Shown in pieces: positions 1 to 4,346 of a stretch of 4,346 bases of DNA (position 1 is its first letter; each line of letters starts with the position of its first letter). The notes beneath the pieces are model-generated. The model was not told the DNA's origin and made no database searches. It worked only from the letters and a program-made list of their open reading frames with translations. The translations under genes and the position numbers were made by a program. Source of the DNA: a virus (Duplodnaviria > Heunggongvirae > Uroviricota > Caudoviricetes); IMG/VR virus record IMGVR_UViG_2711768005_000011. One strand, given 5' to 3'.

Positions 1-41
1 GCTTTGAACTCTTTAGAGTAACGTTGGGTTTTTCTGCTCAT
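1..41 (-). CDS. IS3-family transposase OrfA, N-terminal 13 codons only (5' partial in window)
   Basis: ATG at 41..39 on the minus strand, preceded by AAGGAG (complement of 47..52) with 6-nt spacing. Open frame MSRKTQRYSKEFKA continues past position 1 with no stop. The YSxEFK pattern is typical of IS3-family OrfA N-termini. Confidence 0.55.
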   Translation of the reverse strand, partial: MSRKTQRYSKEFK

Positions 42-105
42 TATTAGCTCCTTCTGATGCCATTCTATTTCAGGAAGGAGTGTCCGTTAAACTCAGGCTA
101 CCTCA
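1..105 (-). mobile_element. Partial IS3-family insertion sequence (IS600-like), terminal ~105 bp; rest of the element lies left of the window
   Basis: Reverse complement of 60..105 begins TGAGGTAGCC; IS3-family ends are 5'-TG...CA-3'. A strong SD plus ATG for a minus-strand ORF lies 64 bp inside this putative end. The visible N-terminus MSRKTQRYSKEFKA matches my recollection of IS600 OrfA. Boundary at 105 is inferred, not confirmed. Confidence 0.55.
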
Positions 106-394
106 ATTTGCGCTGGGAAGTGGTGCGCAAGTTGCGTCTAGTGGCGATATTTATGGTTCAGTGTGGGAAAACAACTGGTTAAGCACATGGCTGCATAATC
201 ATGTCGTTCGGGATATTCGTCTTGGCAGCATTGAATATAAAAACGTATGGCGCGACTACGGCTTTGGCGATGCGTCAGGTTATGTTTTAACAGCCGCAAT
301 TAACAGCAATGCGGATGATATTGTCGACACTGTTGCCAGAAGGCCAATTCAGAAATTGATTGGGGGAATATGGTACAACGTGGGGAGTGTTTAA
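106..394 (+). pseudogene. Tail-fibre distal (C-terminal) cassette fragment with no start of its own
   Basis: Track ORF 80..394 ends ...[18 protein letters not shown]. This C-terminus matches that of the minus-strand cassette ([18 protein letters not shown]). TAA at 392..394 sits 1 nt before the tfa ATG at 396. Upstream, the same frame hits TAG at 14..16 and TGA at 5..7, and 17..105 appears to be IS-derived, so no constant N-terminal part is attached. GTG at 80 has its SD-like GGAAGGAG abutting it, so it is an unlikely real start. Confidence 0.6.
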
Positions 395-395
395 G

Positions 396-923
396 ATGAT
401 GCACCTGAAAAATATTAAGGCCGGGAATCCGAAAACACCGGAACAATACCAGCTAACTAAAAAAGCGGGCGTGGTATGGCTCTTTTGCGAAGATGGCAAA
501 AACTGGTATGAGGAACAAAAGAATTTTCAGCCAGACACCATAAAAATTGCTTACGATGAGAACAACATCATCGTTGCTGTCAGTAAAGACGTTTCAACTA
601 TTAATCCTGAAGGGCTAAGCATAGTTGAAGTTCCTGATATTACGGCAAATCGTCACGCAGACAATAACGGAAAATGGATGTTTCTGGATGGTAAAGTAGT
701 AAAGAGGGAATATACAGAACAGGAACTGCAACAACAGGCCGAATCACAAAAGGCCGCATTGCTTTCCGAAGCTGAATCAGTCATCCAGCCGCTGGAACGA
801 GCTGTCAGGCTGAATATGGCAACAGACGAGGAACGCACACGACTGGAAGCATGGGAACGCTACAGTGTTCTGGTCAGCCGTGTGGATACGGCAAATCCTG
901 AATGGCCACAAAAGCCTGAATAA
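396..923 (+). CDS. Tail-fibre assembly protein (Mu U / e14 Tfa-type chaperone), intact, 175 aa
   Basis: ATG at 396 with GGGGAG at 382..387. Protein [22 protein letters not shown] ... [25 protein letters not shown]. Translationally coupled to the preceding fibre cassette. About two-thirds of the protein is closely similar to the convergent paralogue at 952..1485. Confidence 0.85.
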
Positions 924-928
924 AAATT

Positions 929-948
929 AAGGCCCGATAGCGGGCCTT
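929..948. terminator. Bidirectional hairpin terminator between the convergent tfa genes
   Basis: AAGGCCCG (929..936) pairs perfectly with CGGGCCTT (941..948) around a 4-nt loop ATAG. It is flanked by TAAAAATT on one side, which gives a U-run for the minus-strand transcript. It lies exactly between the stop codons at 921..923 and 952..954. Confidence 0.5.
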
Positions 949-951
949 CTC

Positions 952-1485
952 TCATTCTGGTTGTTCGGGAAACGTTACTGGCAGGCTGGAGGTGTCTGTG
1001 GATTCAACCTTCTGCGCATAGAGCATCCACTCGGTTAATTTTTGTTTATTCTCATCGGAAATGATGCCCAGCTGTAGCTGAGAGTCCCACAGCTGGGTTT
1101 TATCCCTGACGAGCTGCAGCAGGCTCTGCTTTTCATTTTCCGCTTGTTGCCTTTGCTCTTCCTCGGTATAAGTTCGCTTTATCACCGCACCATCTTTGAA
1201 CATCCAGTTGCCCGAAATATCAGCCCGGCGATTTGCTGTAATATCAGGCAACTCAACGACACTTAAACCTTCTGGATTAATTGCTGATACATCCTTGTCT
1301 ATAGCAATAATTATTCCCTCAACTGTGTAAGCCAGTTTTATTGTATCCTCCTGAAAGTTTTTTAATTCCTCATGCCAATTTTTTCCATCTTCGGACCATA
1401 ACCAGATAACATCAAAATTCTTTGTTAGCTGGTATTGTTCAACGGTTTTTGGATTACCTGCGACAATGTTTTTTAAATGCTGCAT
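952..1485 (-). CDS. Tail-fibre assembly protein (Tfa/U' paralogue), intact, 177 aa
   Basis: Track [25 protein letters not shown] ... [30 protein letters not shown] at 1485..1483 lies 2 nt after the TAA (1490..1488) that ends the minus-strand fibre cassette. The N-terminal two-thirds is closely similar to the + strand Tfa. Confidence 0.85.
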
Positions 1486-1487
1486 GA

Positions 1488-1786
1488 TTATACCTGCGAT
1501 ACGTTATACCATGTTCCGTTAATTAACTTTTGTATTGGTCTGAATACTGCCGGATCATCACCATCGACTTCACCGATAATACCAAGCCCCGTGATTACAT
1601 GGCCTGATTTTTCATACATCACGCCTTTCTTCATGGTCTAAACAACTCGTGTGCCAAGTCTGACATCTCTCACATAGCGGGAATCAAAGTTACCGTAATC
1701 CGAGGGATTAACACGTCCCGTAATATTTATGGTTTTATTACTTTGAATGCTTCCGGAGACAAAGCGCATAACATGGACGTTATTAG
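1488..1786 (-). pseudogene. Side tail-fibre alternative cassette, C-terminal portion (downstream of the IS5 insertion), with an in-frame amber codon
   Basis: Same frame as the fibre segment on the other side of IS5 once IS5 and one TTAG copy are removed. Reads NNVHVMRFVSGSIQSNKTINITGRVNPSDYGNFDSRYVRDVRLGTRVV, then TAG (1640..1638), then [49 protein letters not shown], then TAA at 1490..1488. The conserved C-terminal motif lies beyond the amber codon. Confidence 0.7.
1783..1786. repeat. IS5 target-site duplication, left copy (TTAG)
   Basis: TTAG immediately left of the IS5 inverted repeat; identical TTAG at 2983..2986. IS5 is known to make 4-bp duplications at YTAR-type targets. Confidence 0.85.
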
Positions 1787-2982
<1,196 letters not shown>

Positions 2983-2986
2983 TTAG
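2983..2986. repeat. IS5 target-site duplication, right copy (TTAG)
   Basis: TTAG immediately right of the IS5 right inverted repeat; matches 1783..1786. Confidence 0.85.
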
Positions 2987-3614
2987 CATAAACATCCAGA
3001 TTACCATCGCCTTTTTGTTTAAAGCCCGTGTCATTATCACCCAATACAATCGAATTACCGCCAAGAGCACTGGATGTTCCGATACCCAGTGCACCATTCA
3101 GTTGACCACCAGATAACGGCAGTGCACCAACATCTCCTGCTGAAGGTTTTCTGGTGGTGTAAAATTCGGACCAGTCGGCTTCAAAACCATAACCATCACG
3201 GGCTGAACGATAAAAAATACCGCCATTTTTATAATTAATCCGAAACTGAGCTGCAGGACAACTTCCTTCTCCCATATAAAAATGAATAATTAACGTTGAT
3301 GCACCACTAATAGTTGCGTTATAGGCTCCGCTACTCCAGTTCCATCCAACTGCTTTATCATTCGCAACGGTGCTTCCTGTTTTCCCTAAGGCAAACGCAC
3401 CAACATGACTTGCTTTTAATGTGATATCGGAGGAACCATCAAAAGCCACATTGCTTATTTTCCTGGCAGTTTTTAATTTTGCAGCTGTAGAAGCATTGCC
3501 GGATAGTTCACCAGAAAGGCCACCGCTGAATGTTTGTCGATTAGTCCAGGTATTCGCTGTACTGAGTAACGGTATTTTCTCCCCGCTTGTGCCGAGTTCT
3601 CGTAAACCGAGGTT
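2983..3614 (-). pseudogene. Side tail-fibre alternative cassette, N-terminal portion of the variable region (from the crossover site to the IS5 junction)
   Basis: Minus-strand frame opens inside the crossover site (in-frame TAA at 3617..3615) and reads NLGLRELGTSGEKIPLLSTANTWTNRQTFSGG ... FDGSSDITLKAS ... GDGNLDVYA up to the IS5 junction. Track ORF 2874..3449 is the lower part of this frame; its last ~37 codons are IS5 sequence. It resembles lambdoid side tail-fibre (Stf) C-terminal regions as I recall them. Confidence 0.75.
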
Positions 3615-3622
3615 TTAGATAA
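3597..3622. other. Gin/Pin/Cin/Hin-family recombination crossover site (gix/pix-like), right boundary of the invertible segment
   Basis: TTCTCGTAAACC GA GGTTTTAGATAA is a 26-bp imperfect palindrome with the AAACC-NN-GGTTT core characteristic of serine-invertase crossover sites. It lies ~55 bp upstream of the invertase start, and the minus-strand fibre cassette frame begins in its inner half. Confidence 0.8.
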
Positions 3623-3676
3623 TGGCGGTTTCTGGCCTGCATGGCATGATTTGTGCTTTTGGACGGGAGATTCAGC

Positions 3677-3916
3677 GTGCTGATTGGCTATGTAAGGGTA
3701 TCAACAAATGACCAGAATACAGACCTGCAACGAAACGCTCTTGTTTGTGCAGGATATGAACAAATATTTGAAGATAAATTAAGCGGAACAAGGACAGGCC
3801 GACCTGGATTAAAACGTGCTTTAAAGCGCCTTCAAAAAGGTGACGCACTGGTTGTCTGAAAACTGGACTGACTGGGGCACTGTATGCGGCATCTTGTCGT
3901 GCTGGTGGTGGAAGCC
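3677..3916 (+). pseudogene. pin: Serine DNA invertase (Pin/Gin/Cin/Hin family), N-terminal ~60 codons intact then disrupted by stops
   Basis: GTG at 3677 with GGGAGA at 3663..3668. Reads VLIGYVRVSTNDQNTDLQRNALVCAGYEQIFEDKLSGTRTGRPGLKRALKRLQKGDALVV, a recognisable invertase N-terminus with the catalytic-Ser region. Then TGA at 3857..3859 where W is expected, KLD, TGA at 3869..3871 where R is expected, and LGHCMRHLVVLV. A full-length invertase would be ~190 aa. The ATG at 3653 used by the ORF track has no SD and is probably not the start. Confidence 0.8.
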
Positions 3917-4003
3917 TAGAAAAAGTATCGGGTGTTGCTGAACCGTGTTGATACATCAACTGCACCTGATATTGAGTGGCCTACGAACCCTGTCAGGGAG
4001 TAA
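3917..4003 (+). pseudogene. Remnant of the 3' end of a tail-fibre assembly (tfa) gene, in frame with the invertase fragment
   Basis: Same frame as the pin fragment reads EA, TAG (3917..3919), then KKYRVLLNRVDTSTAPDIEWPTNPVRE and TAA (4001..4003). This parallels the C-terminus of the intact Tfa in this window ([25 protein letters not shown]), with the conserved Trp codon replaced by TAG. Confidence 0.5.
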
Positions 4004-4017
4004 TCATTGGGATTATG

Positions 4018-4050
4018 CCGCAGCACGTCTTAAGCAAGAACGTGCTGCGG
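4018..4050. terminator. GC-rich stem-loop, possible terminator between convergent transcription units
   Basis: CCGCAGCACGT (4018..4028) pairs perfectly with ACGTGCTGCGG (4040..4050) around an 11-nt loop. It lies between the tfa-like remnant stop (4003) and the stop of the convergent minus-strand ORF (4058..4060). A T-run at 4061..4066 follows on the + strand, but 10 nt from the stem. Confidence 0.4.
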
Positions 4051-4060
4051 TTGGATGCTA

Positions 4061-4346
4061 TTTTTTCCCTGAAGCGGAAAACATTACTACAGTACCTTGA
4101 ACCTTGGTTTTAACATTCTCGAAATGCTCTGAGAGTATATGTGTTAAGCCTTCTTCGGAATCTTTTGTGTTTGAAAAGATGCCTTTCTGATTGTAAATGC
4201 GCATCAGTTTTTGACCGAAGCTATTGTGCACAACTCCATCGCCAAGAATTGTGGCTCCGTATAGAGTTCCATCGTCAGTTAAGGCCTGCGCCGCATTGCG
4301 TATTACACAGCTTTTTGTAGATATATTTCCAGGCAGGCAGTGAAGA
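4061..4346 (-). CDS. Hypothetical protein, C-terminal ~95 codons (5' end beyond the right edge of the window)
   Basis: Uninterrupted minus-strand frame from the window edge to TAG at 4060..4058: LHCLPGNISTKSCVIRNAAQALTDDGTLYGATILGDGVVHNSFGQKLMRIYNQKGIFSNTKDSEEGLTHILSEHFENVKTKVQGTVVMFSASGKK. The other two minus frames are closed. No family recognised. Not in the ORF track because no start codon lies in the window. Confidence 0.55.

Follow-up and report, generated by a model that had tools for sequence, protein, structure and literature searches.

A copy of IS600 at the probable joint of a large prophage deletion, next to a defective tail-fibre inversion module in Shigella sonnei

Results

We analysed a stretch of 4,346 nucleotides (the window), which is the whole of the draft contig CWVK01000234.1 (GCA_001256455.1). 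At its left edge, positions 1..105 on the minus strand form the left (IRL) end of IS600, with 100% identity over 105 bp. IS600 records matched this stretch at 105/105 (E = 1e-47) in a total of 408 plasmid records from Shigella and E. coli, a match far above chance. The matched records were annotated as 'IS600 ORF1', as is the case in pCP301, or as 'IS3-like element IS600 family transposase'. The annotated IS600 copies in pCP301, pWR100 and others agreed with the window at 105/105, and the stretch equals bases 1..105 of a full IS600 of 1264 bp in a Shigella sonnei chromosome (locus L004). Judged by these identities, 1..105 is genuine IS600 of the IS3 family, as had been proposed in a first-pass annotation made from the window alone. 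IS600 belongs to the IS3 group and was first described from S. sonnei. As the window is an entire draft contig, its left edge is an assembly break within a multi-copy IS repeat.

The structural details given for this end in the first-pass annotation were present as described. A minus-strand reading frame with a Shine-Dalgarno (SD) sequence and an ATG starting at 41 runs off the left edge, and this is the start of IS600 orfA. The ATG is the complement of 39..41, the frame reads MSRKTQRYSKEFK followed by a partial GC(N) codon, which specifies alanine, and the window holds just the first 13 codons before orfA leaves the contig edge. The SD sequence (AAGGAG, 53..48, minus strand) lies 6 nt 5' of the ATG. 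The TG terminus at 105 was found as well: 101..105 reads TGAGG when reverse-complemented, and the minus strand from 105 inward reads TGAGGTAGCC..., the IRL end of IS600. A promoter-like site at 90..62 on the minus strand points inward to orfA and is the sole one near the junction. The plus-strand frame of the adjoining fibre piece is indeed open back to a TAG at 14..16, where it closes; this TAG is without biological meaning because the stretch is IS sequence read antisense.

Among the matches listed, the junction between IS600 and the fibre piece is carried by eight S. sonnei chromosomes, all of them long sequences of 4.8 Mb, of which at least three are finished. Their loci match window positions 1..1786 and 2983..4346 at 99.9-100%. 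Locus L004 is from S. sonnei CFSAN030807 (GCA_002442535.1) and locus L010 is from an S. sonnei assembly (CP109775.1). The IS600 at the locus is complete in the S. sonnei chromosomes, with 1264 bp and imperfect terminal inverted repeats (TGAGGT...ACCTCA), and full copies in these relatives show 99.5-99.8% identity with the copy in pCP301 across 1244 bp. The other end of the L004 element reads ...ACACCTCA, and over the first 40 positions its two ends agree at 23, TGAGGT and GGACACT among them. In this copy orfA (bases 65..367) encodes 100 aa with a Pfam HTH_Tnp_1 domain (E = 1.5e-20) and orfB, in the -1 frame, encodes 272 aa with HTH_21 and rve (E = 8.7e-26). The slippery site AAAAAAAG (A7G) is found at base 316. 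Identity to the reference, TG...CA ends and orfA/orfB frames with a slippery site of the A6G type were thus all found, as in the IS3 family. The pCP301 copy was rejected as the source of the IS600 right end, as a different element, probably IS2 to judge from the adjoining IS2 ORF1, interrupts it at base 1244. The true right end was taken from the S. sonnei chromosomal copies.

A 3-bp target duplication, proposed as a check in the first-pass annotation, was not found around the locus copy. Its flanks are AAT on the IRL side and GTT on the IRR side in six relatives, and the two rearranged relatives have TCC or GGA. A neighbouring IS600 copy in the same prophage has GGA on either side. The reference element and the locus copy are alike in sequence, but the locus copy is without the duplication, as at a deletion or recombination joint. 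The absence of the duplication reflects later deletion or recombination in the history of this copy and is no argument against its identity as IS600.

The IS600 end is followed by a 3' tail-fibre remnant (106..394, plus strand), recognised by homology as the receptor-binding tip of the plus-strand cassette, with 95 codons and a stop. The product of 107..394 is 97% identical to residues 375..469 of a 469-aa fibre in a Mu-like prophage of E. coli E24377A. With window 1..400 as the query, intact E. coli fibre genes matched at 97-99.7% from base 106 and never earlier, and a three-way alignment placed the switch in homology exactly at 105/106. The fibre tip is truncated by IS600, so it has no N-terminal partner within the window, as had been foreseen. 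The suggestion that IS600 hints at a Shigella host also held, as the identical locus is found in S. sonnei chromosomes and the junction is spanned by none of 5,426 complete E. coli genomes. An exact 40-mer over the 105/106 junction gave 0 matches in the species-representative genomes, a set in which Shigella is presumably not separate from E. coli.

Across the junction runs a hybrid ORF of 104 aa (80..394, plus strand), in which a GTG and nine codons of antisense IS600 lead into the fibre remnant. The assembly collection has it as a called gene in 450 blocks, and it adjoins IS600 in the places listed. With a draft contig this short and ending in a repeat, the junction might be thought to be a chimeric mis-join of short reads. 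However, the identical junction stands in at least eight independent long chromosome sequences and the junction ORF in those 450 blocks, which leaves a mis-join with practically no probability.

The hybrid ORF itself is best regarded as a product of gene calling. The SD sequence of its GTG is badly spaced, and the promoter scan gave no outward (plus-strand) promoter-like site upstream of it. Its conservation among isolates is found because S. sonnei is clonal. We consider it highly improbable that the IS600 end drives or permits expression of the hybrid ORF and the following tfa gene, with an orphan tip and its chaperone kept for a new use. If true, the orphan tip and chaperone could complement or retarget superinfecting phages or tailocins. 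Transcription of the hybrid ORF and tfa from an outward promoter in the IS end was among the candidates and was dropped, as the scan gave just the inward minus-strand site.

The remainder of the window has the layout of a fibre inversion module. The tfa of the plus cassette is intact (396..923, plus strand, 175 aa; Pfam Caudo_TAP, E = 7.9e-37), and so is the tfa of the inverted cassette (952..1485, minus strand, 177 aa; Caudo_TAP, E = 4.8e-34). The inverted fibre tip is present in two parts. Its distal part (1488..1786, minus strand) was assigned with the translation of the uninterrupted S. sonnei copy, and its proximal part, which extends to the crossover site (2987..3596, minus strand), has a Pfam gp37_C match and a frame that is continuous in the IS-free S. 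sonnei loci. The inverted tip contains an in-frame TAG at 1640..1638 (minus strand), approximately 50 codons before its end (...RLGTRVV*TMKKG...). The same TAG was seen in all S. sonnei loci examined and is an inactivating lesion separate from the IS.

The two parts of the inverted tip are separated by ISKpn26, an IS5-family element of 1196 bp (1787..2982, plus strand). It was assigned by its identity to an annotated plasmid copy (1196/1196) and has Pfam DDE_Tnp_1 (E = 7.7e-36) and DUF772 domains. As in its family, the element is flanked by a 4-bp duplication, TTAG, at 1783..1786 and 2983..2986. ISKpn26 was absent from all eight S. sonnei loci, which have an empty site there with a 4-bp overlap with the window; compared with these loci the insertion is unique to the isolate. 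A 191-aa ORF over the right ISKpn26 junction (2874..3449) had a single record, the window's own contig, and a 72-aa ORF over the left junction was not on record.

Beyond the inverted tip lies the right crossover (gix/pix-like) site (3597..3622, minus strand), the only one in the window. It gave one match to the crossover repeat of E24377A, with 0 expected by chance, and agrees at 23/26 positions with TTATCCAAAACCTCGGTTTACAGGAA. Each S. sonnei locus (20 kb each) has one such site, and the intact loci L002 (E24377A) and L012 have two. Next to it are codons 1..67 of a pin/gin-type serine invertase (3677..3878, plus strand; Pfam Resolvase N-terminal domain). Homology to the E24377A locus stops at 3878. 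The remnant has TGA stops at codon 61, found in S. sonnei, and at codon 65, which is common to the 64-aa remnant of E. coli 504239, as compared with a recombinase of 193 aa in E24377A. Because the codon-65 stop is shared with 504239, the recombinase was lost before IS600 arrived, and the truncation is older than the Shigella lineage.

The invertase remnant is joined to the 3' fragment of another tfa (3899..4003, plus strand). This was assigned via an alignment at 96.5% and corresponds to the 504239 feature 'tail fiber assembly protein, missing N-terminus'. The last feature is the 3' part of a class I SAM-dependent methyltransferase gene (4058..4346, minus strand), which runs off the right edge and was identified by Pfam on the full S. 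sonnei gene and by the 504239 annotation. The right contig end at 4346 is inside this gene, where the sequence is unique and continuous in closed relatives. No repeat was seen at 4346, and the break may be due to another isolate-specific IS insertion or to a coverage gap.

An intact counterpart of the module was found in E24377A. Positions 3880..8266 of locus L002 are an intact Mu-like G-segment with a 469-aa fibre, a tfa, an inverted tfa, an inverted tip, a 193-aa recombinase and Com, and it is a useful working reference for the fibre tip. Its two crossover repeats of 41 nt lie at 4376..4416 and 7307..7347; the left repeat falls at fibre codon ~167, and the recombinase gene adjoins the right one. 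Since the left repeat is at codon ~167, the IS600 joint lies approximately 600 bp inside the invertible segment and not at its border.

The locus in the window resembles the Mu G/Gin, P1 C/Cin and e14 P/Pin systems in having two opposed cassettes of tip and tfa (106..923, plus strand, and 952..3596, minus strand), a crossover site and an adjoining gene of the pin/gin type. Unlike these systems it has one site instead of two in inverted orientation, an invertase of 67 out of ~193 codons and no constant N-terminal fibre part, and it carries a nonsense codon and an IS in addition. With one site, no recombinase and no constant part the locus is not a working member of this group and can neither invert nor make a fibre. 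As read from its sequence, the inversion switch has several independent lesions and no longer works.

The contig stops at IS600 base 105, and we infer the arrangement on the far side in this isolate from the relatives. Six of the eight S. sonnei loci have ISSso4 (IS21 family) on the IRR side, represented by 286 bp of its left end. In L004 this piece (8477..8762) has TTTGGCAT-type terminal repeats and the start of istA. It sits at codon ~18 of a lambdoid lysozyme gene (L004 8428..8480) and is itself cut by IS600. Outward from the lysozyme start, the order is ydfR (DUF1327), a holin, a nanS-like esterase, a second IS600, a DNA methyltransferase, Q, RusA and DUF968. ISSso4 in the lysozyme gene and IS600 in ISSso4 are nested IS scars.

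The layout of L004 849..8480 was similar to that of Stx-converting phages, with the Q antiterminator, an N6_N4 DNA methyltransferase, IS600, a 617-aa nanS-like esterase, the holin and ydfR. No stx genes were seen in this left arm (849..8480), and the best phage matches to the holin region were largely Stx-converting phages.

Compared with L004 (about 1..10026), two relatives differ in what lies beyond the locus copy. In L008 the 3.5 kb between two direct IS600 copies has been lost together with one copy, which is a 4.7-kb loss and takes out the nanS-like gene, the holin, ydfR and the lysozyme remnant. In L006 the left arm of the prophage is inverted, with one end of the inversion in the locus IS600 copy, which implies a third, inverted IS600 further upstream. 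In total the relatives show three different arrangements beyond this copy, and it is an active recombination substrate within the species.

In the first-pass annotation, the IS was proposed to set the cassette apart from the constant fibre region and from the left crossover site, with its other end to be sought about 1.26 kb upstream. The length agreed with the 1264 bp found in the relatives. However, in the relatives the 5' part of the fibre gene was not beyond it, the far flank being ISSso4 and lysis genes, and the proposed arrangement was not supported. A simple insertion of IS600 into the fibre gene, with the constant part, the left site and the 5' part of the variable region continuing directly past its other end, 1.26 kb upstream, would fit a window that ends inside the IS, and IS600 does insert with 3-bp duplications, as at the neighbouring copy with GGA on both sides. 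Yet 8/8 S. sonnei loci have no fibre sequence at the far flank, where ISSso4, a different prophage region or a deletion is found instead, the flanks AAT and GTT do not match, and neither the fibre 5' part nor a second crossover site was found within 10 kb of IS600 in the S. sonnei loci. On these grounds a simple insertion is very unlikely.

The closest counterpart of the whole arrangement was found in E. coli 504239 (NZ_CP025859.1, about 57-107 kb). This genome has an intact lambdoid prophage in a disrupted ompW, beside yciEFG and trpABCDE. The gene order is int ... DUF968, RusA, Q, tRNAs, lysis, terminase, portal, head, tail, J, lom and stf (1057 aa), and stf is followed by a tfa, an inverted tfa, an inverted tip, the 64-aa recombinase remnant, a tfa fragment and a class I methyltransferase. 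Two crossover sites are present, the left one 1.17 kb before the stf stop. Identity to S. sonnei is 96.5% from the right crossover site onward and 98.7% in the trp operon; similarity in the left arm is weak or partial.

The 504239 prophage is like the S. sonnei locus in its position at yciEFG/trp, in the right-hand block and in overall gene order. In contrast to S. sonnei, it keeps approximately 27 kb of lysis, head and tail genes and the full stf with the left crossover site. It has no IS600, and its lysis module and fibre tips are different alleles from those of S. sonnei. By this comparison the 504239 prophage is a cousin of the S. sonnei prophage and not its ancestor.

Discussion

We consider that IS600 very probably marks the place at which a lambdoid prophage at ompW, beside the trp operon, was rejoined after a large deletion. 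The IRL side of the IS leads into the last 95 codons of a side tail-fibre gene and, in six of the relatives, the IRR side into the 286 bp of ISSso4 in the lysozyme gene. With 504239 as the yardstick, about 27 kb would have been lost, from the lysozyme gene to stf codon ~961. The lost genes would comprise the rest of the lysis cassette, terminase, head, tail, J, lom and the constant part of the fibre. The deletion would also have taken the left crossover site, along with ~290 codons at the start of the invertible segment. Because the lysis module and the tips of 504239 differ from those of S. sonnei, both the origin from a single prophage and the size of ~27 kb are inferences from gene order and chromosomal position. 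In the isolate studied here, CTGACTAAC-type ISSso4 sequence, or the variant flank of L006 or L008, would be expected after the right end of IS600.

Two routes to the deletion can be proposed. The joint would arise if two IS600 copies in direct orientation, the first in the fibre tip and the second in ISSso4, underwent homologous recombination, and also if IS600 promoted an adjacent deletion. The ISSso4/IS600 joint was absent from other contexts in the plasmid collection, and the E. coli genomes gave one two-piece match over 623 bp, which was not the same joint. As the joint was found in no other context, the two routes could not be separated. Either would leave a permanently defective prophage with its fibre inversion switch frozen and inert.

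The joint could instead have brought together two elements, a Mu- or P1-like fibre cassette and a lambdoid remnant, through an IS600 inversion or translocation. The closest intact match to the block of tip, tfa, inverted tfa and recombinase is in the Mu-like prophage of E24377A and in P1-like plasmids, and an IS600-mediated inversion has taken place at the same copy in L006. However, the lambdoid prophage of 504239, at the same ompW/trp site, carries the same terminal block at 96.5%, with the right crossover site, the pin remnant with its stop at codon 65, the tfa fragment and the methyltransferase. The shared block indicates that the cassette is native to the lambdoid prophage at the ompW/trp locus, and we regard a fusion of two elements as unlikely. 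Fibre tips swap between phage types, and similarity of the tip says little on origin. A Mu-like origin of the cassette, suggested by the E24377A match, was dropped in favour of a lambdoid one after the syntenic 504239 prophage was found.

A deletion joint formed by IS600 agrees with what is known of Shigella genomes. IS600 is one of five IS types that have expanded in all Shigella, and the IS expansion has led to pseudogenes and to structural variation from strain to strain, with ISSso4 listed for S. sonnei (Hawkey et al. 2020, PMC7373316). The locus is one instance of the IS-driven genome degradation described there (PMC7373316) and shows no difference from it. It represents ordinary IS-driven prophage decay, which is a known kind of event and nothing novel.

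The finding places the contig in Shigella sonnei and explains the position of its left end, which falls in a multi-copy IS. The fibre inversion module is a fossil, and annotations should not present it as a phase-variable tail-fibre system that works. The locus can also serve as a worked example in which IS600 locks a prophage remnant and then keeps generating structural variants between isolates.

ISKpn26 belongs to another layer of change at the locus. The element was assembled through in a short-read contig and is therefore probably single-copy. The list of 12 IS types for S. sonnei 53G (PMC7373316) does not include IS5/ISKpn26. It was probably acquired recently, possibly from a plasmid. 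The insertion could serve as an epidemiological marker, and it hints at past contact with an enterobacterial plasmid.
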